From contig CAXRJJ010000052.1 of assembly GCA_964230945.1 (NCBI GenBank), forward strand, positions 1-48,627: a stretch of 48,627 nt of DNA. Reading direction: 5' to 3'. Positions 529 through 28,751 of the stretch are shown in pieces. The number at the start of each line of letters is the position of its first letter. Position 1 is the stretch's first letter. The notes under the pieces were generated by a model. That model did no database searches, was not told where the DNA came from, and was given only the letters and a program-made list of their open reading frames with translations. The stretch is from Yoonia sp. (GTDB taxonomy: Archaea; Thermoplasmatota; Poseidoniia; Poseidoniales; Poseidoniaceae). The position numbers were made by a program, and so were the translations under genes.

Positions 529-3500
529 CTACTCTTCTTCACGAATCATGTCGAGTTCGGGCGGTCTTGGAGGGGGAATCTCTACAATTTGCTTTACTTT
601 TGGAGATGGTAATACAGGATTTTCCTCCTCCTCATCTTCCCATTCAACTTCGTATTCTTCATCTTCCGAATGTAATTGTGAACGTATCAGCATGAATACA
701 ACAAATATACAGACGATAATGACGAGACTTCCTAAGATCCATTTCATTTCGTCGCCTGCTGCGTTATCGTCAATCAACGAATCTCTTACAATTCCCAGGG
801 GACTTGGTGACATGCCTTCTTCTCCCTCGAGACCTATGTACAATTGTTGGTCTCCGAAAGAGGCTATTTCGTATTCGAAGGAGAACTGAGCAGAAAGCCC
901 TGGTAGCAATTTAAAATCCTCTGTAATTTCCAATTCGGTTAATTGCCCATCAATTGCTTGAATCAGAATCACACTAGTATTTCCTTCGAGTGTTCCAGTA
1001 TTCTGCACTTGTACATCGATTGTGATTATTTCTCCAAGGCTAGGTACCCTTGGTTCTACTGAAATGTAGGTTACTTGGGGTGAGAATTTGATATAATCCC
1101 AACTTGGTCGTCGAGGTTCAGTCTTGGAACCCGGGCCAGTCAATATGTTGCCACTCAGGTCTTCACCTTCTACCCACACCAGTAGATCATCTGAACCCCG
1201 TAATTCAACGCCCTCTAGGGCTTCACTTAGGTTGAGGATATCGTTGTATATTCCACCTGAAATGTGGTCAACTTGTAATTCTCCTGAAGCACCGGTCAAT
1301 GACAATCCATTTCTTTCAAACTTCCAGTAAAACATCAGAGGGCCAGGCTTCATGCCGTGGTCATCGATGATTGAAAACGAAATTTGTATTCCATCCAAAG
1401 AATCCGATCTGACTCTTAACATCGAAGTGCTGTGGAAAGATAAACGCGGAGCATCGTCATCCAAAATTACTCTCAACTCCAAATCATCGATAGAGTAATT
1501 TCCCATCCCAGAAATATCGATTACTAGGTTCCCTCTATTGTTAGGGAAGTCATCTGATTTGAAAGCGAATCTAGCAAGTCCACTCTGGTTGTCCGAGAGA
1601 TTTGCATTCACCACCATTTCACTTAATCCACCGAGTATCCGTGCACTACTCGAAACACCTTCAGGAAGATTCTGTGCTGGTATTTCTGTGCCTGCATATT
1701 TCAGCCCCCATTCTATGTCAATGATGTCTCCTGGTGCTAGAAATAGCGAGTCGTCCAATAGAGTACCGCTGGTCGGAACCAAATCCATCCATGACAGAAC
1801 GTTTACTTCAAGTTGAGTCAATAATGACCATTCCAGCCACTCCAAATTAGTAAGTCCAAGACCTAGATCTGTTCCTAAGTCTTCAATTCTAAATGAAGGG
1901 ATGTGCTTTGCATTACCCAATAGTTCAATACTCGACCATTTCAGTTCAAATTCAATATTTACGGTGTATCTCGGATGTTCATCCACAATCTCGAATATTG
2001 GTTCACCTTGGAAGCAACCTTCATCCCACAATATTGGAATTATTGACCATGGTTGGTATTCTAGCATGCAATCTACCTCTCCCTCAGTCAACGAGAAGAA
2101 CACAGAATCCAAACTGTTCAATCCGTTTTCATCTTCAACAACAAAGGTGAATACATGTTTATTCCCAGGCAATAGGAATTCGTCCTCGTGTAATTGCATC
2201 TCTACATCAGAAGCGACAACTTCAGCAGGAGTATCTTGCATTAGAATAATGGTGGCCAAGTCGTTTTCAAGCCCATATTCCCCTCCTCCGTTTACTTGAA
2301 TTCCAGCCAAATCTTTCGCACTAACATATACGCTGATTACGCTTTTTTGCAATGAATTATCGACATCAATGAATGGGAATTCAATGAATTCTGAAACGCC
2401 TTTGTTTAACTGCACAGTCAATTGCCCATATTCATTCTCTTGCGCGATTTTATCTCCATCGTCATCCAATGCCTCTCTCCAATAATGGAGGGTAAGTTCG
2501 TCACCCAATGCGCTTTGGTCATTCACTTGAAGCCCAAGTGCTAGGGGGATGTTCTTGTTCCAAACATGGCCATTTGCAGGTTGATCTCCGCTTGGAGTCA
2601 TGGCGTACAAGGTGCCCAATTCTGGACCGTCGTTATCCCAGATAAATTCGGCTCCGCGAATACCAGTAGTCGAATCCTCGACCAAACCTTCGGGTATATC
2701 ATCAGGACCCGCTTGGTGTAGATATGCCTCCAAAACCATTGGAATTTGGTGAGTTAAATCGGCATTTGTTTGAGGAATGTTCAGGTTGTGACTCCAAGCA
2801 CCCTGTTCTCCGACCTCAAGAATCGTGGAAGTAGAGAAATTACCTTGTTTGAGGAATAATTCAACTTCAGTTTCCCCTATGGGAACCCATGAGTCGACAG
2901 ACCCCTCGAATCTCACTTGCCCTTCGATATAGACGTTGGAACCGGCAGCCACTGGCCATGGATACTCTGGGTCAAGAATGTCAGAGATTTCTCTACCGAA
3001 TTGATCTTCGACATGAATGTTGACTAATTCTAAATCGTTCTCTACTGCGTTACCAGCACTGAACCCCGTAGTCATAACTGCAGGGCCAAGTTCTGTTCCT
3101 ACTGCATCATGGGCTTCGGTCATGAAATGAAGTTGCGGCCTATCATCCCACAGCCAAAGAGTACTCCAATACCATTCAACTTCCCAACCATTGTCTCTTT
3201 GAGTTATTGTGGTGTTAGAATAATCCCACTCGATCAACCCTTGACCAAGTGGTTGTTCAAATGATGGCTCAGAGGATTGTGGGTTTATGATTCGCATCAA
3301 AATCTCCGCAGAATCTGTACTCTTGTGTTGGCCAAGCATCAGTTCAACCGATGTGAATTCTTGTCCGCGGAGATGTTGATGCCAAGTAACCGTTCGATAT
3401 ATGGTGCCGTCTGGAACCATTGCATCAGGAGTCTCTACAACCGTATTGGTAATCATGTATTGCCAAAGGATAGCCCCTCCGATATGCACGCCTCCTCCAG

Positions 3501-6500
3501 ATGTACTGAAATTGACAGGGATTTCTACTTGTGTGGAATTCTGAATAAGCGCTTGCTCGGTTAGAATATCTGCAAGATCATTTTCATCCAAGGAGATGTT
3601 TTCCATTAAGTCGTATGTGAACATCATTCGATGCACCTCAAGCTTCCATATTCCTGTGAAATTGAAGAGATGCCTGAATTCTTGGAATTCTAGGGCCTGT
3701 GGAATAGTGAAATTTGTTTGAGGTCCGAACATCAACATACTCCATTCATTGATTCCTTGATTTTGGGAACCAGTCTGACCCAGATCTAGTCCATCCCATT
3801 CGTTTTCGAATGTGGAATTATTTGCATCAGCTCCAAGATAGGTTGTGGTAAATGCAAATTGGAAGGAGATGACCTCTGCATCACTCGGGATGTAAGTGCT
3901 GAGATTCAGAGTGCTGTTTTCAACTACCATTGAGATGCTAGGGGAGTTCACATCATGCCTAGTTGTCAAGCCATTCTTTGAGACATCAACGTGGTCAATT
4001 TCAGATTGTAGTCCGTGGTGCGATATCGGGTGGCTAGTGTTGTATGGCCAAGCCCACTCTGGTTCACCATCATCCCAACCTTTGTCACTCTGCTTGCCAT
4101 CATTTCCAACATCGATGGCTGAATCATTTGCCAGTCCATGGTATCTTGCGCGCATATCGAAACTCTCTATCCAACCGTTTGAATTAATTGACAGAGAAAC
4201 GATGACTTGCCCCATACCGGCGTTTCTTGTTTGAGTTAACGTAGTGGGTATAGAGATCAATTGTGCTTGTCCCCCAGTGCTCAGGTATACTCCGCTACAT
4301 ATGCAGTTCAATTGCAATTCTTTGATTGGTCGATGTTCAACGAATGTGAATCCAAGGAATGAACTCCCACTTCCACTCGATTCCCATCTGTTGTTACGGT
4401 TATGCCAACTTGGATAATCAGTGTTGAAGCCGAACTCAGAACCATCACTCCATTCAGAATTGACAGAGTATTTGGTCAGGTGTAGGTCTGAACCTATACT
4501 CACTTTGTCAATAACGGGTGTTAGTAATGGATCGGTGGTGAAGAGATTAAGACGAATTTTCAACGAAGGGTGAGCGGTCCAATTGATGCTTTGAAGATTC
4601 AATGGTAAACTCATATTCTCTAATATCAAAACGTCACTTTCACTCAGAATTGATGCGGTGACTGTAGTTCCCACGGGTATGCTGCCGCGGATATCTAACA
4701 GACCATAACCCCATTCATCGGCATGAATCAGAGGTGAGGTCCAATTCCCATGACTTTCGAAATAATCGACTTCAATTCCAACATCATCCAAATACCAACC
4801 CCATTCTTCTACGTAAGTATCTGAGAAGAAAGAGAATCTGAAGCGAACGTCTTGTCCTGCTAGGTGCGAAACATCCGCTTTCTTGATAGAGAATGGGTGA
4901 GCATTGAAACAACCTGATGGCACTAGGGAACCATCGAATATTCCTTTGAGATGTAATGGGGAATTAGGATTGACAGTGGAATTGGTATCGTAGAAATTAT
5001 TGCTGTTCTGTCCAAAGTGAGTCCATGTATTCCCGTCATCTGTCGAAACATAGACGGTTCCACCATCCCAATTTGGCTCGGCACACATCCAATGTTGGAA
5101 GGCTAATCGAGCACTGGCATCGTCCGGTATGTACATTTCAGGACTGATAAGGTGTGTCCACATGTTTGGTAGATATTTTCCTGCGAATTCTATTCCAGCA
5201 CCATTTGAGCCACTTGGGAAGCCAGTCATTGGTCCATGTCCGGGGTATTGCCCGAAGGCCCAGCCCCTGTTACCGGTCTCTATTTCGACACTCCACCCGT
5301 CGGGCCAGAGTGGAGAGTCCTCAAAACCAAAAGCAGTCCATGTGGGACCATTATGCCCATGATTTGTCACATGTTGCCATTGTTGAACAGAACCACTTGG
5401 AGAAGAGGTAGTGACGCTGTTGTTGCTGGAGAAATTGTCTAGCAATAACATCTGATGATTTGGCATTTGAATGTTTGAATGAAGTGTTGGGTCGTCAAGG
5501 TAAACGCCCTCCCATCCACTTATTCCATATCCGCCATTGACTTGACTGTCAGTATAGACTCTGAATCTGAACCATACCTGTGATTTGTTTGTGAAGATAT
5601 GAGAAACCGGCATCATGATCTGCTTGAAGCCATTTGATTCGGCATAATACCAAACCCCGTCCACATATACTCCGGAACCTGGAATGCCCGGTGGTGCAGA
5701 AATAAGGCTCCAATTGCTACCATCAAGACTCGCTTCTACCATCAGGTTGTCATTATTGTTCCCTTCGATATCCCAGTCTACCCACATTTCTAATTCCATA
5801 GGTGAAGTCATTCCACTGGTATTGGTTAGAATTGTGATTGCACCATCTGCATTTGCTGCATAAGCGCCATTGAGATTTCCATGGAACCATGAATTGGTCG
5901 GCTCTCCAGTATTGCTGAGGTTGATTGCATCAATGAACCACCCCGGTCTTTCCATACTTTGTTCTGCAGTGCTAATATAGAAACGGAAACTGATAGTGCT
6001 GGCATTTTGCAGGGCATTTAGACCTAGTTGATGATCCAATGAGTACTCGACATGACTCCATGCGCTAGCATTCAAGCCAACGAATGCCGGAGTCCCGTTC
6101 GAAAGATTCTGAGAATGTCCACCTATTGGTTGAATTTTATTCCAACTACCGTTATCCAAGCGGGCTTCTACCCATGCCCCATCATTCACATCCACGTTCA
6201 ACCAATGTTCGAAATGTAAACTGTAATTATTCACTACTGTAGGTAGATCCACAGAATCTAGTTGTAGCCATTCCTCTGTTCCCGCGGGCAACCCTCCAGC
6301 CTTTGTTGCAGCCGCTAATAGAATCCCTTCCGGTATGGAATTCGGGAGTGAACCATTTGCTGCACTGATATTCAAATCACTAACCATCCAGATATCTGAT
6401 GAAGCTGTAAACCCTGTGAATTGCAATTTTAAATCTTCAAAATCATCCACCCAACCAACATTTCTATCTGGGGCGAGACTGATTTTTCCATCGAAATGGG

Positions 6501-6834
6501 ATGTTGAAGTCAAATCATTTACTCCCATGTCTAAACTTCGATTTGCAACTCCCGATTCGAACCAGGTTCCGTTCCCCCCATCTATGTCCCAATCATTGCT
6601 CACATTCATCCATCCGCCGGTTATTGTTGCATTGGCGGGAACGCTGAACCCACTACTCAGAACCGACGAATGATTTCCTTCCATTGTGGTGTTGAATCCC
6701 AAAGGATCGTTACCAGAATAATTTGTTTGGAACGCCACACCTGTTCCAATTAACGGAACCATTCCTCCCAGCAAGAGAAGGAATACGATCGAGAGTGAGA
6801 CCCCCGTACTCCCCCTCCGCTCTCGTGTACGCAT
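529..6834 (-). CDS. Giant (about 2100 aa) secreted, C-terminally anchored surface glycoprotein with repeated beta-sandwich domains, an Asp-box and a CARDB-like domain
   Basis: ATG at 6834 gives MRTRERRG plus a hydrophobic signal peptide. Three modules end GWFIDAINL, GVYLDDPTL and GWYLDDVGI. Asp-box STDDGNTWT. CARDB-like TIDVQVQNTG. C-terminal TM helix and acidic tail. Many N-x-S/T sequons. Confidence 0.85.
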   Translation of the reverse strand: MRTRERRGSTGVSLSIVFLLLLGGMVPLIGTGVAFQTNYSGNDPLGFNTTMEGNHSSVLSSGFSVPANATITGGWMNVSNDWDIDGGNGTWFESGVANRSLDMGVNDLTSTSHFDGKISLAPDRNVGWVDDFEDLKLQFTGFTASSDIWMVSDLNISAANGSLPNSIPEGILLAAATKAGGLPAGTEEWLQLDSVDLPTVVNNYSLHFEHWLNVDVNDGAWVEARLDNGSWNKIQPIGGHSQNLSNGTPAFVGLNASAWSHVEYSLDHQLGLNALQNASTISFRFYISTAEQSMERPGWFIDAINLSNTGEPTNSWFHGNLNGAYAANADGAITILTNTSGMTSPMELEMWVDWDIEGNNNDNLMVEASLDGSNWSLISAPPGIPGSGVYVDGVWYYAESNGFKQIMMPVSHIFTNKSQVWFRFRVYTDSQVNGGYGISGWEGVYLDDPTLHSNIQMPNHQMLLLDNFSSNNSVTTSSPSGSVQQWQHVTNHGHNGPTWTAFGFEDSPLWPDGWSVEIETGNRGWAFGQYPGHGPMTGFPSGSNGAGIEFAGKYLPNMWTHLISPEMYIPDDASARLAFQHWMCAEPNWDGGTVYVSTDDGNTWTHFGQNSNNFYDTNSTVNPNSPLHLKGIFDGSLVPSGCFNAHPFSIKKADVSHLAGQDVRFRFSFFSDTYVEEWGWYLDDVGIEVDYFESHGNWTSPLIHADEWGYGLLDIRGSIPVGTTVTASILSESDVLILENMSLPLNLQSINWTAHPSLKIRLNLFTTDPLLTPVIDKVSIGSDLHLTKYSVNSEWSDGSEFGFNTDYPSWHNRNNRWESSGSGSSFLGFTFVEHRPIKELQLNCICSGVYLSTGGQAQLISIPTTLTQTRNAGMGQVIVSLSINSNGWIESFDMRARYHGLANDSAIDVGNDGKQSDKGWDDGEPEWAWPYNTSHPISHHGLQSEIDHVDVSKNGLTTRHDVNSPSISMVVENSTLNLSTYIPSDAEVISFQFAFTTTYLGADANNSTFENEWDGLDLGQTGSQNQGINEWSMLMFGPQTNFTIPQALEFQEFRHLFNFTGIWKLEVHRMMFTYDLMENISLDENDLADILTEQALIQNSTQVEIPVNFSTSGGGVHIGGAILWQYMITNTVVETPDAMVPDGTIYRTVTWHQHLRGQEFTSVELMLGQHKSTDSAEILMRIINPQSSEPSFEQPLGQGLIEWDYSNTTITQRDNGWEVEWYWSTLWLWDDRPQLHFMTEAHDAVGTELGPAVMTTGFSAGNAVENDLELVNIHVEDQFGREISDILDPEYPWPVAAGSNVYIEGQVRFEGSVDSWVPIGETEVELFLKQGNFSTSTILEVGEQGAWSHNLNIPQTNADLTHQIPMVLEAYLHQAGPDDIPEGLVEDSTTGIRGAEFIWDNDGPELGTLYAMTPSGDQPANGHVWNKNIPLALGLQVNDQSALGDELTLHYWREALDDDGDKIAQENEYGQLTVQLNKGVSEFIEFPFIDVDNSLQKSVISVYVSAKDLAGIQVNGGGEYGLENDLATIILMQDTPAEVVASDVEMQLHEDEFLLPGNKHVFTFVVEDENGLNSLDSVFFSLTEGEVDCMLEYQPWSIIPILWDEGCFQGEPIFEIVDEHPRYTVNIEFELKWSSIELLGNAKHIPSFRIEDLGTDLGLGLTNLEWLEWSLLTQLEVNVLSWMDLVPTSGTLLDDSLFLAPGDIIDIEWGLKYAGTEIPAQNLPEGVSSSARILGGLSEMVVNANLSDNQSGLARFAFKSDDFPNNRGNLVIDISGMGNYSIDDLELRVILDDDAPRLSFHSTSMLRVRSDSLDGIQISFSIIDDHGMKPGPLMFYWKFERNGLSLTGASGELQVDHISGGIYNDILNLSEALEGVELRGSDDLLVWVEGEDLSGNILTGPGSKTEPRRPSWDYIKFSPQVTYISVEPRVPSLGEIITIDVQVQNTGTLEGNTSVILIQAIDGQLTELEITEDFKLLPGLSAQFSFEYEIASFGDQQLYIGLEGEEGMSPSPLGIVRDSLIDDNAAGDEMKWILGSLVIIVCIFVVFMLIRSQLHSEDEEYEVEWEDEEEENPVLPSPKVKQIVEIPPPRPPELDMIREEE

Positions 6835-6962
6835 GCGTATACCCGGGCCGACTACGTCGGCCCGATGGACTTGAAACCTGTGAATAGTCGACACACCAGT
6901 ATTTCTTGGTAAATTGGTGCGAGCATTCAAGGAATGGGCGCGTTGCACACTCGGCGAGAGGG

Positions 6963-7991
6963 ATGGGAGAGGACTCACAAAAGCCGGGCAATCTTGACCC
7001 CAAGAGGGCCAAAGATATGGAAGAGGAGTTGAATGCAACTCTTCGCAGACAAGTTGAGCGCCTATTGCCAGTTCCACTACCATTTTCTGATTTCTGGGGT
7101 AGAAGCGCTGAGCTGTTGGACTATCTCGAGGGCGAATTGAATCGTACTGTCCGCGCCGAGGGTCACAATCTCCGTTCCCATACGGCCAGTCGAAGACAGG
7201 CCAATGTTCGAAGGACATTAACGGAACTTGCTCGCAAAAGATTGGTGGCATTGTTGAATCATGCAGTTTCCTCAGATTTCAGACCAGAAGGCGGTGCTGA
7301 TCCGGCAGGAATCCCATCTTTGGATTGGAACAAGCACGATGCTGCAGAGAAACAATTCTACAATCAATGCGTGCGATTGGTGGAGTCATTCAAATCTAGT
7401 GTAGATTGGGTGGAAATGCAAAGTGGTGCAGGTGCTGTTGAACATATTCCGCAAGTGAGTCAAGGGACTAAACAATTGGATGATTTCGTGGAAGAACCTG
7501 GTGGATTGACAGGGCGTGGGCCTCCACCAATTGAGATCATAATGCAACAAGAAGCAGAGATTGAAGATTTTGAAGAGGATGAAGAAGCGAGAATCGCTAG
7601 AATGGAAGCCTTTCCAGAAATGATGGAAATGGCTAACCAACCTCCTCCCACAGAAGAAAGACCGCTAATTGATGAAAACCCAGTATTTGTTCCTGAGAAG
7701 AAATCTACCATGACTTTGGATGACCTCGTATCAACGGGAGCCACTCAGAAAGTCGAAATCGAACCCTTAGAGGAAGAAGTCCAAATTCAAGAACCACCAT
7801 CTGATAATGAAAATCGAGGCAGTAAAGGATCAGTTGAATTGTTGCGAATCAGAATATTGCAATCATCGGATGAACCGATTGCAACCGCTGACGGAGAAAT
7901 CGATCTAGAGGCGGGTGACGTGCACCAATTAGAGCAAAAAATAGCAGATTACCTGATTCAAGCAGGTGTTGCAGAAGCAGCTCCACTATGA
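6963..7991 (+). CDS. GINS family replication factor (Gins51-type, A domain then B domain) with a long acidic linker
   Basis: N-terminal helical A-domain-like segment (PLPFSDFWGRSAELL...RKRLVALL). C-terminal B-domain pattern RIRIL...IATADGEIDLEAGDVHQLEQKIADYLIQAGVAE. Confidence 0.7.
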   Translation: MGEDSQKPGNLDPKRAKDMEEELNATLRRQVERLLPVPLPFSDFWGRSAELLDYLEGELNRTVRAEGHNLRSHTASRRQANVRRTLTELARKRLVALLNHAVSSDFRPEGGADPAGIPSLDWNKHDAAEKQFYNQCVRLVESFKSSVDWVEMQSGAGAVEHIPQVSQGTKQLDDFVEEPGGLTGRGPPPIEIIMQQEAEIEDFEEDEEARIARMEAFPEMMEMANQPPPTEERPLIDENPVFVPEKKSTMTLDDLVSTGATQKVEIEPLEEEVQIQEPPSDNENRGSKGSVELLRIRILQSSDEPIATADGEIDLEAGDVHQLEQKIADYLIQAGVAEAAPL

Positions 7992-21307: not shown

Positions 21308-21817
21308 ATGGCCAAGGATTGGAGTGTTAGGAAAAGACGCCCAGTTCGTCGTAAACAAGTTGCCCCTTTGTTATCTAAACTCGAGGATCGCTTCGGCATC
21401 GATTTGAATCTTGAGGGGGCCTTTCTCGAAGTTGCTGAATACGGTAGTTGGAGATTAATGATTGTAAATCGTGAACCGCATGCTGTTGAGATTGAGAATG
21501 AAGACGGGGAGATCGTCGCTGCACTGACATTGAGGGGCCTCTTGGCCCACGCCCCAGACAAATCGTGGTTGGAGGTAGATAGAGGAGCTATTCCATTTTT
21601 GATGAATGGAGCTGATTGTATGGCGGCTGGCATACATGCTGCACATGAAGAGATAATTGCAGGAGATTTAGTTTGGATAAGAGATCAAGAACACAAACGG
21701 CCTTTGGCCCTCGGATGGGCTTGCATGGATGCGAATCAGATGGTTGAGGAAAGTAGTGGCAAGGCGGTCAAGACCCTGCATTGGATAGGCGACGAATTGT
21801 GGGAAATGGAGTTTTGA
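21308..21817 (+). CDS. PUA-domain RNA-binding protein (DUF1947/MCT-1-like)
   Basis: VDRGAIPFLMNGADCMAAGI, GKAVKTLHWIGDELW. Confidence 0.9.
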   Translation: MAKDWSVRKRRPVRRKQVAPLLSKLEDRFGIDLNLEGAFLEVAEYGSWRLMIVNREPHAVEIENEDGEIVAALTLRGLLAHAPDKSWLEVDRGAIPFLMNGADCMAAGIHAAHEEIIAGDLVWIRDQEHKRPLALGWACMDANQMVEESSGKAVKTLHWIGDELWEMEF

Positions 21818-21876
21818 ACAATATTGTTGAACCTTTTGAGCGAGCGATTCAAAACCTTACGGTTATTGGACACCCC

Positions 21877-22464
21877 ATGCAGAGGTCGTCGCTATTCATA
21901 GCCTCGCTAATCATGATTCTATGTTCAATGCAAACTGTTGCTGCTGCTGGCGGTGAAGATGTTGAACCTGATATCTCCGAATCACCGATAGTTGCAATCA
22001 ATCACACTGTAGAGGCCGCAGATCAATCGGATTGGTCGATAAGTGTGGAAATCAATTCTGATGCAGCAAACAACAACACCAGCATTAGGATTCTGCGTCA
22101 GATGTGCACCAATGATGGTGTGTGTGATTCACCTGAGTGGGAAGATATTGAAGCCAGTGAAAATAGAACTTTTTGGAATTCTTCATGGGTGACAATTGAT
22201 GATCATTCATATGTGAATTGGAAGGTATCCGTAGATTATGATGATGGGGAATCCGAAGAGTTCCCTTCTAAGGGATATGCCAAAGCATGGAGTTCTTGTT
22301 GGTATGATATCGATACAGATCAATGGGGTGGCAAGGACTGTCCTGATGGTCCTCCAGAGGATAAATCAGATAAGGTCGAAGAAGAATCATCCATACCTTC
22401 AATCAGCCTCCTTTCAGTTGTAGGAGTATTGGGACTCGCTGCATTGCTCCGTCGAAACTCATAG
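21877..22464 (+). CDS. Secreted protein with C-terminal sorting-like signal
   Basis: Signal peptide from ATG at 21877. Acidic Cys-paired domain. Ends IPSISLLSVVGVLGLAALLRRNS. Confidence 0.8.
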   Translation: MQRSSLFIASLIMILCSMQTVAAAGGEDVEPDISESPIVAINHTVEAADQSDWSISVEINSDAANNNTSIRILRQMCTNDGVCDSPEWEDIEASENRTFWNSSWVTIDDHSYVNWKVSVDYDDGESEEFPSKGYAKAWSSCWYDIDTDQWGGKDCPDGPPEDKSDKVEEESSIPSISLLSVVGVLGLAALLRRNS

Positions 22465-22845
22465 CGATGCATGCTCGCATAATCTATCGATTAATCGTCG
22501 AACTTCTATTCCCCAAGCAGTGATTAGGACCTCTACCTTCTTCCTATCCTTGGATAATTTTCCTTTTTCGAAACCAGGCATTGTAAGGTCTGAAGGTACC
22601 AAGGGAAGTACTTGATTAGACTCCATATTGAGTTGCACCCCGTCTTCAACACATTCTAGATTTATCTCTTCTGGCAGTTCTCCCGCATGTCTAATCATTG
22701 TAGCAAACAATTCTTCTGAAGATTCGTTACCATGCCCACCTTCTAGATGCTCGCTAGCCGCCTCACCATATGCAGAAAGGAAGGGCAGGTCCACATCATT
22801 GTCATCGAGTAAATCGTCTAATCCTCGACCCAGTTTTCTTGCCAT
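22459..22845 (-). CDS. Hypothetical protein with ParB-like N-terminal LGRGL peptide
   Basis: Begins MARKLGRGLDDLL. Starts 8 nt after the stop of the SAP-domain gene. Confidence 0.75.
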   Translation of the reverse strand: MARKLGRGLDDLLDDNDVDLPFLSAYGEAASEHLEGGHGNESSEELFATMIRHAGELPEEINLECVEDGVQLNMESNQVLPLVPSDLTMPGFEKGKLSKDRKKVEVLITAWGIEVRRLIDRLCEHASL

Positions 22846-22853
22846 ATGAACCC

Positions 22854-24995
22854 TCAATCACTCGATCTTGTATGCGTCCATCCAATCATTTTCCCATCAC
22901 TAGCATCTGCAAGGAATGAGAATGTGTGAGACCAATCACCTTCATCCCAAGATCTAACTCCATCTACGGTGACTCTACCTGCGTCGCCCAATGGCAAGAA
23001 GTCAAATGTGTCAGGTAAATTCACTCCTGCTGTTGCAACCAAGATTCCGATTTTCAAATCATCATTCCATTTTCCTGAAGATGCAGCAAGCCCATTAGTT
23101 CCACTCAATTCTGGGAACTTGCCTTCTTCTAGCCAACGCGATTCTTCCATCCAACGCAGGGAAACAGTTTCCGGAATGGCTTGACGATTGTGATCGGGTG
23201 CTTCATCCAGTAAGCCTGAGTCGATGTAAGTACAATTTTCCTCGCTACCTCCTTGGCCAGCGACATCAACCACCAACCATCCACTTGCATCGTCGTTAGC
23301 CAACCAACTCATGTTCCATCGGGTTTTGTCTTGCGAGGATCGATCATCTCTTGCTCTCCAAATGTACGCATCATGGTCTTGTAGGTTGACTTCTGCTTCA
23401 TTTCCACCCCCCGAAGTGTTTCCAATGCAAGATATGGCAATTTCCAAGGGTTGGTTGCGAATGCTGGATAAATCGGGAGCATGTCTTTCGGTAGAGCCCC
23501 AATCTGCCATTTCAGATGAAGGTGGTCTGAGACTGGAAATGTCAGGCTTGGAATCGTAAGAATAACCCAAATCAACTAGATTTTCACCCCTTGAAAGACT
23601 CGTTCTTTCAATTGTCATCTTCATTTCCAGTCTACCATCAGGCATCGCGTAATCTCCTAAGATTTCTTGCCAAGTTCCACAATCGCTGGAATCATCACCG
23701 CTAATCAATAGGTCAATTGATTGTCTAATTGCCCATGGCGAGGAAGGAACCGCCAAGATGTGTATAGTCGCATGCCCTAAACAATTGTCTTCAATGTCTT
23801 TGTTTCTGAATAGGATTTTCCAAGCAACTTCCTCTCCAACATCTTCACTTCCTGTGACTTGCCAAGACCAACCTGAAACATTTCCAGCCGCTTCTTCATC
23901 AATCATGGTGTTGCCAAGTACTTCATGTAATTGTAGGGGAGAGAAAATCATCGATGCGCCCAACCCAATCGAATCTAGAGAATCCAAGAACCCATTCAGT
24001 CCAAATGTAGTAATGTCTCCTTGTAATTGCCCATCAGGATGCACTAGTTCATAGCCGAATTCAGAACGAATGCTGTTCTCACTACTCAATTCAATCCATT
24101 CGTTCCAATCTATTCCTAACCTCGCGCTGACAGAAGGCATTTCGATACACCCTAGTGTACTGGAGACTTCACTTTGGGCGATATCAACATCGTCAAAATC
24201 GTAATTCAGATTGCGTTCCATTGTTAACCAAGAGAATCCATTACCACCAATCTGCTTGACTGAACCAAGACGATCGTCATTCATTTCACCAGATATATCT
24301 GATCTGTCTCCTTCTGTAATTGAAACACTACCACTTCCCGAAAATTGTACGTTCAAGCCGCATATTTCATCATCAGAACCGAACCATTGGAAGATTTGTG
24401 AAGCATAATCATCTGTTGCGACTAATTGTCCACCAGTAACGGCGAATCCCATTTTATCCCCATGTCGTAAAGGGTCAGGGGTGAATGGTTCGGCATCCAG
24501 ACTGAACCACCACCATGCTCCAGCGGCCAATAGAATCAAAGTTACTGCCAAAGCAGCGCTCTTTTTCATGTCCAGAGATGAGGATTCAAATCTACTTGCA
24601 GATGCCGCCCCTTCTTTGCTACTTTCAATATCAATTTCTTTGACAACATCCGCTTCAATGACATCCGCTTCGATGATTTCATCATCGACAACTTCAGCCA
24701 CAAAGACCTCCGCCTCCAAAACATCGTCTTCTTTTGACTCATCTATGCTGTCAATGGATGCTTCATCACTATCTGTTGAAATATTCTCTTCCTCATCGAG
24801 AATCAATTCTCCCTCATCATCAACAATGATGTCGACTTCCTCTTCTTCCAGCGGTTCAAGACCTACTTCTTCCCTGCTGGCTCCATATTTGAGCAAGCGT
24901 TCGACTAGTTCCGCCTTCTTCCCAGACGAGGCCAATTCCTTGTCCTTGCATAGGGCTCTGAGGGCAGCAACGGTCAATGCAGAGTCCGACGCCAT
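22854..24995 (-). CDS. SAP-domain single-pass membrane protein with large ectodomain
   Basis: SAP motif LTVAALRALCKDKELASSGKKAELVERLL, acidic linker, TM AALAVTLILLAAGAWWWF, then about 540 further residues. Confidence 0.85.
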   Translation of the reverse strand: MASDSALTVAALRALCKDKELASSGKKAELVERLLKYGASREEVGLEPLEEEEVDIIVDDEGELILDEEENISTDSDEASIDSIDESKEDDVLEAEVFVAEVVDDEIIEADVIEADVVKEIDIESSKEGAASASRFESSSLDMKKSAALAVTLILLAAGAWWWFSLDAEPFTPDPLRHGDKMGFAVTGGQLVATDDYASQIFQWFGSDDEICGLNVQFSGSGSVSITEGDRSDISGEMNDDRLGSVKQIGGNGFSWLTMERNLNYDFDDVDIAQSEVSSTLGCIEMPSVSARLGIDWNEWIELSSENSIRSEFGYELVHPDGQLQGDITTFGLNGFLDSLDSIGLGASMIFSPLQLHEVLGNTMIDEEAAGNVSGWSWQVTGSEDVGEEVAWKILFRNKDIEDNCLGHATIHILAVPSSPWAIRQSIDLLISGDDSSDCGTWQEILGDYAMPDGRLEMKMTIERTSLSRGENLVDLGYSYDSKPDISSLRPPSSEMADWGSTERHAPDLSSIRNQPLEIAISCIGNTSGGGNEAEVNLQDHDAYIWRARDDRSSQDKTRWNMSWLANDDASGWLVVDVAGQGGSEENCTYIDSGLLDEAPDHNRQAIPETVSLRWMEESRWLEEGKFPELSGTNGLAASSGKWNDDLKIGILVATAGVNLPDTFDFLPLGDAGRVTVDGVRSWDEGDWSHTFSFLADASDGKMIGWTHTRSSD

Positions 24996-25095: not shown

Positions 25096-26217
25096 TCAAC
25101 CGTTGAATGGCGTATAGGTGCCATCAGCATTCTTGATGTACGGTTGTGGATCAAATGTGTTGTCTGCTTTGAGGATGTAGTGGTATCCATCTCCAGATTC
25201 AATGTAATTCAATGCTGTCGTAGGTGCAGCAGGTGCTACAGGTGCAGTTGGCGCTGCAGCATAGGGGCTTGCAGCCTGAGCAGGAGCAGCCGTAGGTCCA
25301 GGAGCAGGAGCAGCCGTGGGTCCAGGAGCAGTTGCAGGAGGTGGACCAGCAGGGCCGTCAGCAGGTGGTGGGCCCGCAGGCCCGGCACCGATTACCGCTT
25401 GATTTGTATCGTGCATTACTGAATCCTCGATACTCATTGAACCTCTTCGAACTGAGGTCCTTTCTTTCAGAATCTTACCTTTTCGCTGCGCTCCGATGAA
25501 TGCAAAAATTGCCCACAATAACGAGATGCCACCTAAGCCACCACCGATTTCTCTCAGGCCATATACTGATGCAGTCACTTCAAGTGAACCCTGATCATGA
25601 CCATAATCTTCGTATTCGACTAGGAGACAGTATCCACCAGGATCCAATCTGAATTCAAACTCGTAAGTTCCCTTGGGTTGAGAACCTTCAAACAGAATAT
25701 GGTTGTCTGAATATGATTCGTTTCTTGCAACTGCGGCCTCAAATTCCAACATTTCATCAGTTACCTTATCTGTTCCACAATGCGCTTCAATTACATGCAC
25801 AGAGAAATCTCCGCCGTCCATTGGAACCACTTCAATTACCAGTCTGATATCGGTACTATCTTTACCATCGATTGGCATTCCAAACAAGTATGGTAATTCA
25901 CGTTGCAATTCTCCACCTGAAACATCGTCAGTCAATACGGTTTCATCATCCCAAGGTGCTGGAACGGGTAGTGGAATTAGTGCAAAAGAGAACATTATGG
26001 CTGCAATTCCAAGGTACATGAAGACATTCCATCTTGCCTTTTTCACCTTGCTGCGCAACTCTTCAGTACTCAACTCGCCCTTTGCTACTCTATCTGCTTG
26101 ATCCATGGCTTCAGCGCCCGGAGGCGGCCCTGCTGGTCCTGCCATTTCGGGCCTTGCAGCGGGAGGTGGCCCACCTGCTTCGCCAAGTTCATCCGGTGGG
26201 CCCCATGCTGGTGGCAT
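25096..26217 (-). CDS. Two-TM membrane protein with Pro-rich termini
   Basis: GPAGPPP repeats at both ends, two hydrophobic helices, and a small Tyr-rich C-terminal module. Confidence 0.75.
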   Translation of the reverse strand: MPPAWGPPDELGEAGGPPPAARPEMAGPAGPPPGAEAMDQADRVAKGELSTEELRSKVKKARWNVFMYLGIAAIMFSFALIPLPVPAPWDDETVLTDDVSGGELQRELPYLFGMPIDGKDSTDIRLVIEVVPMDGGDFSVHVIEAHCGTDKVTDEMLEFEAAVARNESYSDNHILFEGSQPKGTYEFEFRLDPGGYCLLVEYEDYGHDQGSLEVTASVYGLREIGGGLGGISLLWAIFAFIGAQRKGKILKERTSVRRGSMSIEDSVMHDTNQAVIGAGPAGPPPADGPAGPPPATAPGPTAAPAPGPTAAPAQAASPYAAAPTAPVAPAAPTTALNYIESGDGYHYILKADNTFDPQPYIKNADGTYTPFNG

Positions 26218-26327
26218 TACCCTGCGGAGTACCGCCTTCGCCTTCAAAGGCGCGATTCCCTAATCTTGCTATTTTTGCGATTTGTTGGGCATTCAATTGA
26301 AATGGGAGGGAGTCGCGGGAATTAGCC

Positions 26328-27527
26328 ATGAGGTTGGCAATTCTTTCGCGCGGTCCGCGTTTGTATAGCACCCGCCGCCTTGTTGAGGAGGCAAGGAAAA
26401 GGAATTGCGACGTGGAAGTCTTGGACCCATTGCAATTTTCTTTGATGATTGCCGAAGATAGTGTCCAGATTCTACACAAAGGGCGACGTTTTTCTCACGA
26501 TGCAGTCCTACCGCGAATAGGCCATTCGATTACTGATCATGGAGTTGCGCTGATGCGTCAGTTCGAACAATTAGGAATCTATACGGCTAATTCTAGTTCA
26601 GGAATCATCCAAAGCAGAGATAAATTGCGCGCTAGTCAAATATTGGCCAAGAACAAGATAGATATTCCACGAACAGCATACGTCAGGGACCTCAGGGATG
26701 TTGAGAATGCTATCGATGACGTAGGTGGATTACCGGTTGTCGTTAAGGTCACACAAGGTACACAAGGTAACGGCGTCTTCCTCAGACACACTCATCGAGA
26801 AACACGGCACCTTGTTGAAGCGTTGTTGTTGACGGGTAAAGCGGTACTTATTCAGGAATACATTGCTGAAAGTCACGGTGTAGATGTCAGGGCTTTAGTT
26901 GTGGGCGACAAGGTTGTTGCCAGCATGCGTCGGCGAAGTCGCGGTAGAGAATTTCGTTCTAATTATCACCTCAATGGAACTGTTGAACCTATCGATATTC
27001 CACTTGAATATGAAGAAGTAGCCAAACGTGCAGCAAGAGTTCTAGGTCTGAAAGTTGCAGGTGTAGATCTTCTGGAGGGTACTGATGGGCCATTGGTATT
27101 AGAGGTGAATTCATCTCCTGGCTTAGAAGGTATAGAGAAGGCAAGCGGCGTCAATGTTGCAGCACATATCATTGATTTCATTATCGATGACCACGATTTC
27201 ACGGATATCGATATGGCGCAATTGATGAGGACTCAACCTGGCCAAGGGGCATTGTCACTACACTTGAGAAACCACATATCATTGATAGGTAGGATGATTG
27301 AAGAGATATTCCCTGCAAGCATGAAAGATTCCATACCAGTGTTTGCATTATCTAGGGACAAGAAACTCCACTGGAATCCTGATCCACAGACTCAACTTCG
27401 GTATGATGACGTCATTATCTTCTATGGGCCTACCAAGGCTTTGCGAGCAGCTTTGAAGTCGGTCACTCGTGGAACCGGTGTCGAATCCACCAACACCTCT
27501 CAAGGAACTAGTGATTCTTCTGTCTGA
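26328..27527 (+). CDS. rimK: RimK family alpha-L-glutamate ligase fused to an RCK_C (TrkA-C)-like domain
   Basis: MRLAILSR..LYSTRRL, SRDKLR, GTQG.GV, QEYIAES.G.DVR, FRSN.H, LEVNSSPGLEGIE. C-terminal LIGRMIEE...VFALSRD...NPDPQTQLRYDDVIIFYG. Confidence 0.9.
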   Translation: MRLAILSRGPRLYSTRRLVEEARKRNCDVEVLDPLQFSLMIAEDSVQILHKGRRFSHDAVLPRIGHSITDHGVALMRQFEQLGIYTANSSSGIIQSRDKLRASQILAKNKIDIPRTAYVRDLRDVENAIDDVGGLPVVVKVTQGTQGNGVFLRHTHRETRHLVEALLLTGKAVLIQEYIAESHGVDVRALVVGDKVVASMRRRSRGREFRSNYHLNGTVEPIDIPLEYEEVAKRAARVLGLKVAGVDLLEGTDGPLVLEVNSSPGLEGIEKASGVNVAAHIIDFIIDDHDFTDIDMAQLMRTQPGQGALSLHLRNHISLIGRMIEEIFPASMKDSIPVFALSRDKKLHWNPDPQTQLRYDDVIIFYGPTKALRAALKSVTRGTGVESTNTSQGTSDSSV

Positions 27528-27662: not shown

Positions 27663-28751
27663 ATGCGCGATGAGGGATACAAGGACTTGGTCAAGCGCCA
27701 AACTTTTCTTGATTCTCAGAAGGACAATGGCTTATCTCCTACAGCACCTTCACCCAACCTCCCTCAACGTCTTGCAAGATTAGCCAATCTAGCGTGGTTG
27801 GGGTGTTGGAGGCAACAATTGCAGATTGAAGGAAAGAGCGAGAATACGCGTAAATCCTATCTCATTGGTGTCAGATCTTTGATCGAGACTCGATTACCTG
27901 GGGAAGATATCATGACTCGCGATGAGGCTGAGTCGATTTCTGTTGAACAATTGCATGTTCACATTGCTCCCCATTCCGGACGATTAGATGTGTGGCAGCA
28001 GTCATTGAGTCATCTCAAACCATCTACTGTACACGCTAGATTAGCTGCTGCAGGCCATTTATTACGTTGGCTCGGACATAGTATGCCGGAGCATGTCAGT
28101 AGGCCTCATCGTGGTAGAAGGCTACCAAGAACATTGAATCGCAGTGAGTTAGAGAGCGTGCGCCGCGCCGCTGCAAATTGCGAGAACCCAGTTGCCAATG
28201 TAATCATCACGATACTGTTGGATACCGGAATTAGAGTTAGTGAACTTTGTAATATGGATGAACATGATATCGATATAGAGGACAATAGCGCTAGAGTAGT
28301 CGGTGGTAAAGGGAACAAGGATAGAATGGTGCTATTCACTGAACAGACTACCAGAGCACTAGAATTATGGGAACCGAGTCGTATTTCCCGTAACATCCAC
28401 GAAGATAGCGCCTTGTTAATCAACAATCGAGGAGGGCGTTTAACCCCGCGCTCTGTTCAGAAATTGATGAACGACATAGGTAAGTCCGCAGGTTTACCCA
28501 GAGGTCGCTTAACCCCTCACGTACTACGTCATAACTTCGCTACTGGTCTATTGGAGAGGGGTGCTGACCTAGTTTCGATTCAACGCTTATTGGGTCATGC
28601 CAACATCTCTACAACTCGGGTATATCTTGAGATTGGTGATCAGACTTTGAGAGAGGTCTACAAGCGAGCACAAATCCTCAGAGATGCATTGGAAGAACAA
28701 GAGCAACCAAGTGGAGAAGAATCAACCACTCTTACGAACTCTCTTGACTGA
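27663..28751 (+). CDS. xerA: Tyrosine recombinase, XerA-like
   Basis: Catalytic R (TGIRVSEL), K (GKGNKDR), HxxR (HVLRH), H (LLGH), Y (TTRVY). SD GGAGG 7 nt before the ATG. Confidence 0.88.
   Translation: MRDEGYKDLVKRQTFLDSQKDNGLSPTAPSPNLPQRLARLANLAWLGCWRQQLQIEGKSENTRKSYLIGVRSLIETRLPGEDIMTRDEAESISVEQLHVHIAPHSGRLDVWQQSLSHLKPSTVHARLAAAGHLLRWLGHSMPEHVSRPHRGRRLPRTLNRSELESVRRAAANCENPVANVIITILLDTGIRVSELCNMDEHDIDIEDNSARVVGGKGNKDRMVLFTEQTTRALELWEPSRISRNIHEDSALLINNRGGRLTPRSVQKLMNDIGKSAGLPRGRLTPHVLRHNFATGLLERGADLVSIQRLLGHANISTTRVYLEIGDQTLREVYKRAQILRDALEEQEQPSGEESTTLTNSLD

Follow-up and report, generated by a model that had tools for sequence, protein, structure and literature searches.

What is a peptide of the bacterial partition protein ParB doing at the front of a small archaeal protein that is otherwise no ParB, and why does the gene for that protein stand directly behind one for a membrane protein with a SAP domain? 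The question is raised by two genes, here gene 1 and gene 2, on the reverse strand of contig CAXRJJ010000052.1 (GenBank assembly GCA_964230945.1, deposited as Yoonia sp. and placed by GTDB in the archaeal order Poseidoniales), of which positions 1 to 48,627 form the stretch of 48,627 nucleotides (nt) analysed in this study and called the window below. An earlier note made from the sequence alone had proposed that DNA binding and activation of a ParA-family ATPase are split over the two co-expressed proteins, which would give a membrane-anchored system for segregation or positioning. Comparison with relatives reveals that a gene for a ParA ATPase (ParA-1) lies exactly between the two genes in other members of the order, and that it has been lost from the genus to which this archaeon belongs. 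The best-supported explanation is that the locus represents a ParA module of new composition, consisting of a SAP membrane protein, a Soj-type ParA and an adaptor with a ParB-type peptide, of which the archaeon's own genus keeps the two outer genes.

Gene order was compared in 41 genomes, namely that of the archaeon itself and those of 40 relatives, by mapping the genes with BLASTP at the fetched loci, and the cases interrupted by contig breaks were settled with genome-wide homologue searches. Homologues of gene 1 are found in 40 of these genomes and those of gene 2 in 31. In one relative (G024) a gap of 1 kb between the two homologues holds the gene for a 320 amino acid (aa) ATPase with the sequence KGGVGKTT, which is ParA-1. 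There are 13 genomes with the order gene 1, ParA-1, gene 2 (11 contiguous, and G010 and G034 across contig breaks), eight with the order gene 1, ParA-1 and an EamA-type membrane protein, and one (G027) in which gene 1 and ParA-1 have no recognised third gene. Gene 1 directly adjoins gene 2 at a spacing of 4-40 nt in 17 genomes that lack ParA-1, including that of the archaeon and those of all eight congeners. In one further genome (G029) gene 1, ParA-1, gene 2 and the EamA gene are all gone together. The expectation that the pair would be conserved across the Poseidoniales is thus borne out, since the two genes are syntenic across the order.

A strong match to ParA-1 (E < 1e-50) is present in 22 of the 41 genomes, and it is always located at this locus. 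A weaker type, ParA-2, which appears in the same search with E values of about 1e-28 to 1e-36, is the sole type in 19. ParA-1 carries its KGGVGKTT as the Walker A motif and matches Pfam AAA_31 at 6e-53. Its closest solved relative is Soj of Thermus (1wcv, E 1.1e-54), and SegA of Sulfolobus (7dut) is reached at only 4.5e-13; judged by these sequence matches, ParA-1 is of the Soj type. Because ParA-1 stands at this place in each of the three families that make up the order, it is likely to be ancestral there, and the three-gene order is most simply the ancestral one. The arrangement in the archaeon's own genus would then most simply have arisen by a clean deletion of ParA-1. Two other features of the ParA-1 proteins of relatives may be recorded here, an acidic extension of about 65 aa at the N-terminus, ahead of Walker A (for example at locus L011, 1947-2906, reverse strand) and a conserved C-terminus with the ending RWGL.

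The extreme N-terminus of gene 2 includes the sequence KLGRGLDDLL, for which bacterial ParBs have RLGKGLDALI, RLGRGLAALI and ALGRGLDALI, and contains the ParA-binding motif with its central arginine or lysine. The bacterial N-termini were taken from genes downstream of Soj homologues in a plasmid collection. They read MSKRLGKGLDALI (Paenibacillus), ..RPRLGRGLAALI (Methylobacterium), MAKGLGKGINALF, ..SALGRGLDALI (Parabacteroides) and ..FALGRGLDALI (Prevotella), and each stands beside Soj. Two of the five proteins used for alignment are confirmed as ParB by Pfam and those of Priestia and Parabacteroides are annotated as ParB in their records; the Prevotella open reading frame (ORF) is a putative ParB. 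When the gene 2 family was compared with these five by hhalign, only the extreme N-termini were aligned, over 21 columns (P 1.3e-4, probability 54%). The claim that gene 2 begins with a ParB-type peptide agrees with this match. In chromosomal ParB/Spo0J, as in gene 2, the motif [K/R]-x-L-G-[R/K]-G-L-[D]-x-L-[L/I] forms a disordered extreme N-terminus in which the central basic residue is conserved. In ParB this motif, together with DNA, stimulates the ATPase (PMC12462528). The ParB/Spo0J gene also lies directly downstream of a Soj-type ParA, as gene 2 does in relatives.

Searches with the peptide by itself return little. A phmmer search of the PDB with the 36-aa tail of gene 2 gave a chance match only, and a hunt for ParBs with the peptide alone found none, either by a word-index search for longer proteins or by tblastn against plasmids. 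ORFs with LGRGL[D/E] occur in near-chance numbers in a scan of five genomes, although gene 2 is the sole credible N-terminal case in the archaeon's own genome and the sole sizeable ORF there with LGRGL[D/E] at its N-terminus. It could be asked whether the likeness arose by convergence or carries no meaning, with gene 2 unconnected to ParA. The motif is short, searches with hidden Markov models return no ParB family, and the hhalign probability is only that given above. However, the peptide occupies the very start of the protein, as it does in ParB, and its conservation extends over three families. It also stands immediately behind a Soj-type ParA, in 13 of the 41 genomes as part of gene 2 and in four fetched genomes, at the same place, as part of a fusion described below. 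We consequently regard coincidence as extremely improbable.

The remainder of gene 2 does not resemble ParB. Neither Pfam nor NCBIfam gives a family for the protein at E <= 1, and ParB families are absent among the Pfam matches at E <= 10 for the 24 members of the gene 2 family that were scanned. Pfam and NCBIfam detect no ParB_N CTPase domain in gene 2, and a ParB_N (PF02195) scan detects none anywhere in the genome. There is likewise no helix-turn-helix (HTH) DNA-binding domain, as judged from the lack of a Pfam match and from the predicted model, and neither HTH_ParB (PF17762) nor ParB_C was detected. As further differences from ParB/Spo0J, gene 2 is only 128 aa long, its body is an unrelated alpha/beta domain, its host is an archaeon and no parS site is known. 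The model and the alignment, both based on 24 sequences, assign residues 1-40 to a disordered region and residues 41-128 to a confidently predicted domain, with a predicted local confidence score (pLDDT) of about 90. The ATG of gene 2 at 22845 follows the TGA of gene 1 (22856-22854) after eight bases, gggttcat, and a GAGG lies 6-9 nt upstream of this ATG, overlapping the gene 1 stop. The earlier description of gene 2 as a protein that begins eight nt after gene 1 and has no ParB CTPase or HTH region is accurate on both counts.

The fold of the gene 2 domain cannot be named from the available matches. The best Foldseek match (a T4 MotA complex, E 0.047, TM score 0.33) and the best VIA match (the YdhG-like 9t2w, Z 5.6, root-mean-square deviation 3.5, 80 residues aligned) are too weak for this purpose, a sequence profile search of the PDB gave only a chance match (E 0.12), and an Atlas look-up returned scores of 0.75 only. 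Two candidate identities found no support. A ribbon-helix-helix (RHH) or SegB-like protein is disfavoured by the predicted model, which is not RHH, by the absence of any RHH chain among the fold matches and by the lack of a PDB sequence match. A 'mini-ParB', in which the C-terminal strand-strand-helix of gene 2 would be the ParB_C domain that it resembles by eye, is not supported either: a genome scan with PF23552 misses gene 2, and hhalign against the C-termini of the five ParBs gives probabilities of 0.2-0.6%. A complex prediction with residues 1-142 of gene 1 and with gene 2 scored 0.00 against a mark of 0.32; it was run without controls and says nothing either way.

The same architecture invites comparison with small ParA adaptors. 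Gene 2 resembles ParG, SegB and HpaB, which are small ParA adaptors or type Ib centromere-binding proteins, in its size, in a disordered N-terminus expected to contact the ATPase and in a gene position beside ParA, as described for HpaB and SegB in two accounts (PMC13722703; bioRxiv 10.1101/2025.04.15.649018). The likeness extends to McdB and PomX, which are non-DNA adaptors. Unlike ParG, SegB and HpaB, gene 2 is predicted to have the order H-E-E-h-E-E-H rather than an RHH fold, it has no sequence match to SegB or to any solved chain, its tail motif is of the ParB type and its partner is a conserved membrane protein. The RHH-type candidate of the archaeon's own genome is a different gene, which is located beside ParA-2.

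There is good evidence for conservation of the gene 2 tail. R7, G8, L9, D10 and L12 are kept in at least 90% of the 24 aligned homologues, so that the RGL core is conserved as the earlier note had anticipated. A second, family-specific tail motif, DLPFLSAYG, has L20, F22, L23, Y26 and G27 invariant or nearly so in the same alignment. The distribution of the family is narrow. Among 151 sampled genomes of the class, a gene 2 profile found the protein in 64 of 65 genomes of family f1 and 12 of 40 of family f3, and in none of the 43 of family f4 or the two of family f5. Against 1.84 billion representative proteins the profile found 92 proteins at E <= 0.001, none of them longer than 220 aa; the family is therefore a narrow one, without a form fused to a ParB body. 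In the archaeon's own genus, where ParA-1 is lacking, only three positions among the first 27 residues of gene 2 differ between lineages with an overall identity of 62%, and the tail must therefore still be under constraint. Although ParA-1 has been lost, the LGRGLD core is fully intact in all nine genomes of this genus, as it is in genus g9. This suggests that the tail is still functional there, whether its partner is ParA-2 or something else.

In a sister clade the same peptide is found on an entirely different protein. At four of the eight fetched loci of the clade with an EamA gene, an ORF opens 3 nt past the ParA-1 stop with the sequence xRGLGRGLEDV..GPDLSSF and leads, in the same frame, into an EamA protein with ten transmembrane (TM) segments. 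The fused protein matches Pfam EamA (EamA/DMT) at 7.6e-23, and in three of the four fetched fusion ORFs the sole start codon available before the first TM segment precedes the peptide. This EamA is present in 32 of the 61 genomes of family f3 that were sampled; the match begins at query residues 1-3, within the peptide, in 19 of the 32, four of which were inspected directly, and at residues 9-34 in the other 13. The genera with this EamA (g16-19, g21, g25 and g30) have no stand-alone gene 2, and those with gene 2 (g14, g15, g20 and g22-24) do not have this EamA. Thus, the peptide stays beside ParA-1 while the module on its C-terminal side is swapped from a soluble to a membrane protein. The fusion is the best indirect evidence both that the peptide is the ParA-facing element and that it can act from the membrane.

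These observations cause us to favour, with a confidence only slightly above even, a reading in which gene 2 is a minimal partner, or adaptor, of a ParA ATPase, made of a ParB-type tail and a non-ParB alpha/beta domain, and ancestrally the last member of a unit of gene 1, ParA-1 and gene 2. Perhaps ParA-1 forms ATP-bound dimers on the nucleoid, and the gene 2 tail would bind at the ParA dimer interface and thereby trigger ATP hydrolysis. The C-terminal domain of gene 2 would tie ParA to a cargo or an anchor. The membrane is the most likely place for this anchor because the same tail is fused to a ten-TM EamA protein in the sister clade and because the constant member of the operon is a SAP membrane protein. 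The cellular role might accordingly be sought in tethering of the nucleoid to the membrane or in positioning.

Gene 1 supplies the membrane protein. SAP is the sole Pfam family matched (PF02037, residues 5-37, E 1.1e-8, 35 bits against a cut-off of 23.9), and the helix-extended-helix motif with the conserved pattern L..L....G(K/R)K..L..RL is present. L12, L21, G25, K27 and R33 are invariant among the 26 aligned homologues. In the AlphaFold2 model, which is likewise based on 26 homologues, the SAP helices occupy residues 9-18 and 27-36 (pLDDT about 88), residues 50-141 are disordered (pLDDT below 50) and an ectodomain of residues 166-713 is folded (pLDDT mostly 85-95). The linker is about 105 aa long and the ectodomain 548 aa; acidic repeats are seen in the linker of every homologue, and A95 and E96 are nearly invariant. 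Pfam and the model together reproduce the layout first described for this protein, that is, a SAP motif, an acidic linker of roughly 110 aa, one TM helix and an ectodomain of roughly 540 aa. Two lysines precede the TM helix, and K/R-rich flanks on its N-terminal side are very pronounced in the homologues. The SAP domain is predicted to be cytoplasmic, and the 548-aa domain to be outside, because of these lysines and arginines, because six cysteines are invariant in the C-terminal domain and because there is no N-terminal signal sequence. An extracellular SAP domain, which would have spoken against the original proposal, is therefore not predicted.

The ectodomain yields weaker clues. With VIA-align, residues 170-470 are aligned to open or closed beta-barrels, the best being DUF1849 (6ntr, Z 12.1, root-mean-square deviation 4.2, 197 residues aligned), followed by LolA and LolB with Z of 8-10.7 (LolA 8cgm, 10.7). 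Autotransporter barrels, which are closed outer-membrane barrels, score about 10, like LolA/LolB, and residues 510-709 are aligned to the lipoprotein 4exr (Z 8.0). Foldseek gave poor matches for the ectodomain (TM score <= 0.17). The modelled likeness to LolA is at most a hint of an ectodomain that binds a hydrophobic ligand, and it may reflect a common arrangement only.

In eukaryotes, proteins of the SAP/HeH-LEM kind, including Heh1, Heh2 and MAN1, are tethers of the inner nuclear membrane, and HeH/LEM tethers such as Heh2 and MAN1 have two TM segments and a MAN1/Src1 C-terminal domain. Gene 1 is like these in having an N-terminal helix-extended-helix domain of the SAP type on the nucleic-acid side of a membrane protein. 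It is unlike them in its single TM helix, as modelled, in its putatively LolA-like ectodomain and in the absence of a MAN1/Src1 domain from its Pfam matches. A further difference is that SAP in this archaeon is also fused to a peptidase, L32e and Pus10.

There are six SAP matches above the Pfam cut-off in the 1.9-Mb genome of the archaeon and none in any of 14 control genomes. The five proteins other than gene 1 are a SAP-TM-M28 peptidase, a SAP protein with multiple TM segments, a SAP-acidic linker-L32e protein, a Pus10 with an inserted SAP and a TM protein with SAP and a Cys-rich tail. As far as such domain matches can tell, a SAP tail on a membrane protein is a recurrent device in the lineage. 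Since SAP is also joined to the RNA-related proteins L32e and Pus10, either RNA or DNA could be its ligand. This promiscuity weakens the case for the SAP domain of gene 1 as the putative DNA-binding half of a split ParB.

These fusions are also relevant to an alternative in which ParA and the peptide would use the nucleoid solely as a matrix, or track, for the spacing of a membrane complex formed by gene 1, by EamA or by both, with SAP as a generic tail for contact with nucleic acid. ParA-like systems are known to space carboxysomes or chemoreceptor arrays. The direct fusion of the peptide to a polytopic membrane protein in the sister clade fits such positioning of a cargo, as do the SAP tails on an M28 ectopeptidase and on a multi-TM protein, the distance of the locus from origin-recognition genes, and the availability of ParA-2 and its RHH-like neighbour as a separate system for DNA segregation. 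That McdB and PomX are ParA adaptors not acting on DNA adds a precedent. However, any cargo is only putative, the ectodomain fold gives just a generic LolA-like arrangement, and the dedicated ParA-1 is gone from the archaeon's own genome. On balance, we think this alternative unlikely.

The ParA-2 unit bears on the choice of partner for gene 2 in the genomes without ParA-1. ParA-2 is also Soj-like, it is 37% identical to ParA-1, and it is found in 40 of the 41 genomes, the exception being G038. About 70 nt downstream of ParA-2 there is an 80-aa ORF (RHH80), which is followed by an 88-aa ORF (orf88). The 80-aa protein is present in 31 of the 41 genomes and is always beside ParA-2. It has no Pfam match, and its Atlas clusters are automatically named 'ribbon-helix-helix CopG' with a score of 0.96, which is a lead only. 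By analogy, ParA-2 and the RHH-like protein look like an ordinary pair in the style of type Ib, SegAB or HpaAB systems, as these are described in two accounts (PMC13722703; bioRxiv 10.1101/2025.04.15.649018).

RHH80 and orf88 share their phyletic pattern with stand-alone gene 2, that is, with its C-terminal domain. Both gene 2 and RHH80/orf88 occur in all 24 genomes examined of family f1 and in genera g14, g15, g20 and g22. Within family f3, RHH80 and orf88 follow ParA-2 in both of the genomes with gene 2 that were examined and at none of the eight loci of the EamA clade, in which genomes are reduced and stand-alone gene 2 is lacking as well. Such a pattern would be compatible with a three-part system in which the RHH protein binds DNA and gene 2 bridges it to ParA-2 as an adaptor with the activating peptide, by analogy with AspA-ParB-ParA of pNOB8. 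The RHH-like protein has next to no tail at its N-terminus, ahead of the predicted first strand. In eight relatives with long contigs (G019, G017, G024, G033, G010, G039, G035 and G037), 25-70 kb of the same contig separate the ParA-2 locus from that of gene 1 and gene 2, and a bridging adaptor has a precedent (PMC13722703). Nevertheless, the common pattern probably reflects one event of genome reduction, in which case it amounts to roughly one observation, and the ancestral neighbour of gene 2 is ParA-1 rather than ParA-2. A three-part system of this kind is very unlikely in our estimation.

The pNOB8 system of Sulfolobus also resembles the proposal in the earlier note, in that DNA binding and contact with ParA are on separate polypeptides and an adaptor stands between them (PMC13722703). 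It differs in that no relationship of sequence or fold to the present proteins was found, and in that the candidate for DNA binding in the archaeon is a SAP protein integral to the membrane and not the winged-helix protein AspA.

Several observations weigh against the reading of gene 2 as a ParA adaptor. The archaeon's own genome has no ParA-1, and all nine genomes of its genus, among 19 of the 41 overall, carry only the ParA-2 type. ParA-2 has conserved downstream genes of its own and therefore need not use gene 2. In the EamA clade, ParA-1 is kept without an LGRGL peptide in four of the eight fetched loci and in 13 of the 32 sampled, and a scan with a degenerate DNA pattern found no other convincing ORF with an N-terminal LGRGL in three of those four genomes (G030, G032 and G038), in G029 or in the archaeon's own genome. 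The peptide is therefore not obligatory for the retention of ParA-1. In genus g12 (G019, one of the 41 genomes) about 100 kb separate gene 1 from gene 2, and Orc1/Cdc6 is far from the locus in two single-contig genomes, G019 (186 kb) and G039 (about 520 kb). In addition, with SAP on five other, unrelated proteins, its presence in gene 1 is not specific evidence for a split ParB. Finally, DLPFLSAYG is more strongly conserved than LGRGL and has no counterpart in ParB, which hints at another partner, and the RGL core is altered in three of the eight genera without ParA-1 (KGF in g5, SSLD in g8 and RDL in g12).

The last two points lead to an explanation without ParA, in which gene 2 has been retained to serve gene 1 as a subunit in the cytoplasm or as a regulator, and the gene 2 tail, especially DLPFLSAYG, binds some other partner. 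The pair remains coupled at 4-40 nt in the 17 genomes mentioned above, R7 is only nearly invariant next to the invariant L20, F22, L23 and Y26, the core drifts as just described, and ParA-2 stands with its own neighbours. This explanation has more difficulty with the intact LGRGLD core in all nine genomes of the archaeon's genus and in genus g9. Moreover, the central lysine of genus g5 is normal for ParBs (PMC12462528). For this lineage the explanation appears quite unlikely to us. Because ParA-1 has been lost cleanly, the two genes are still eight nt apart and the tail is constrained, the pair in the archaeon itself would be expected either to use the remaining ParA-2 or to work independently of ParA, gene 2 then being the cytoplasmic subunit of a membrane protein.

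The preferred reading of gene 2 as a ParA adaptor thus leaves the original idea of a membrane-anchored, ParA-linked system partly in place. The synteny, the RGL core, the likeness to ParB and the position of ParA-1 speak for it, and the co-occurrence with ParA holds to the extent that ParA-1 lies exactly between the genes in 13 of the 41 genomes and that the archaeon has ParA-2. The part that did not stand concerns the archaeon's own genus, from which the cognate ParA-1 is missing, and the roles assigned to the partners, since ParA-2 has partners of its own and SAP is not specific. Because the module is partly dismantled in the archaeon's own genome, an annotation of gene 2 as 'ParB' would be wrong.

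The coordinates of the features are collected in Table 1. Besides the neighbours listed there, two genes on the gene 1 side are conserved in many relatives, one for a RimK-type ATP-grasp protein with a TrkA_C tail (26328-27527, forward strand) and one for a tyrosine recombinase of the Phage_integrase family that is Xer-like (27663-28751, forward strand). On the other side, the 3' end of the gene for the 227-aa protein overlaps the gene 2 stop by a few bases. Elsewhere in the window, an ORF of 2240 aa (529-7251, reverse strand) has only a weak InhA-like match to a MAM domain and presumably encodes a giant surface protein.

Table 1. Positions of the genes, domains and related loci discussed in the text; entries without a contig or locus are positions of the window, and G000 is the archaeon's own genome.
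Feature	Position	Strand	Basis or remark
Gene 2 coding sequence (128 aa)	22462..22845	-	stop 22459-22461; starts MARKLGRGLDDLL
Gene 2 disordered N-terminal tail, residues 1-27 (KLGRGLDDLL, then family-specific DLPFLSAYG)	22765..22845	-	conservation; pLDDT about 50
Gene 2 C-terminal alpha/beta domain, residues 41-128 (H-E-E-h-E-E-H)	22462..22725	-	predicted model, pLDDT about 90
8-nt spacer, gene 1 stop to gene 2 ATG	22846..22853	-	ParA-1 occupies this position in relatives
Gene 1 coding sequence (713 aa, ATG form)	22857..24995	-	stop 22854-22856; full ORF 22854..25022
Gene 1 SAP domain, residues 5-37, predicted cytoplasmic	24885..24983	-	Pfam PF02037; genome scan gives the same coordinates
Gene 1 acidic disordered linker, residues 38-142, conserved (V)LEAEV.EAEI.E motif	24570..24884	-	AlphaFold2 model and alignment
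Gene 1 single TM helix, residues 143-165, predicted N-in	24501..24569	-	AlphaFold2 model and flanking charges
Gene 1 ectodomain, residues 166-713, beta-rich; 170-470 modelled as open beta-barrel of LolA/DUF1849-like arrangement	22857..24500	-	AlphaFold2 model, VIA-align
383-aa Pro-rich protein with predicted membrane segments, upstream of gene 1	25096..26247	-	no Pfam match; in most family-f1 loci
227-aa protein with hydrophobic N- and C-terminal segments, convergent, beside gene 2	21781..22464	+	no Pfam match; conserved
ParA-2 (311 aa)	G000 contig C87, locus L018: 1222-2157	-	
80-aa likely RHH protein (RHH80)	G000 contig C87: 913-1152	-	
88-aa ORF (orf88)	G000 contig C87: 637-900	-	
Peptide-EamA fusion ORF	L052 671-1624	-	directly after ParA-1
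Peptide-EamA fusion ORF	L054 5899-6852	+	directly after ParA-1
Peptide-EamA fusion ORF	L055 5554-6522	+	directly after ParA-1
Peptide-EamA fusion ORF	L056 1125-2111	-	directly after ParA-1
Other SAP genes	G000 contigs C70:858, C86:12935, C125:5740, C78:7325, C74:2316 (loci L082-L086)		

To our knowledge, chromosome organisation and segregation in archaea are known from few systems, namely SegAB, AspA-ParB-ParA and HpaAB, and none of these is from marine group II. Our literature search found nothing on a module of gene 1, ParA-1 and gene 2, and neither Thermoplasmatota nor Poseidoniales appear in the accessible text of two accounts of archaeal segregation (PMC13722703; bioRxiv 10.1101/2025.04.15.649018). 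A bolder possibility, which we consider doubtful, is that the locus represents a machine between nucleoid and membrane, in which a ParB-derived peptide displayed at the membrane would engage a Soj-type ParA on the chromosome and turn it off. The peptide would be displayed either by gene 2, as a soluble adaptor docked on a membrane protein that holds DNA through its SAP domain, or by a polytopic membrane protein that bears the peptide itself. If true, it would be a prokaryotic counterpart of the eukaryotic HeH/LEM tethers between chromatin and membrane, coupled to a ParA motor, and the SAP-tailed membrane proteins found throughout the lineage would together provide a general contact layer that links the nucleoid with the envelope.

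The findings have a more immediate meaning as well. They indicate that the ParA-binding peptide of bacterial ParB can be a portable module, which may be carried by a non-ParB domain or by a transporter-like membrane protein. Marine group II archaea are abundant and uncultured, and the locus offers testable material from them on the evolution of ParA activators, on how a ParA might be driven from the membrane and on the role of SAP domains in prokaryotes.

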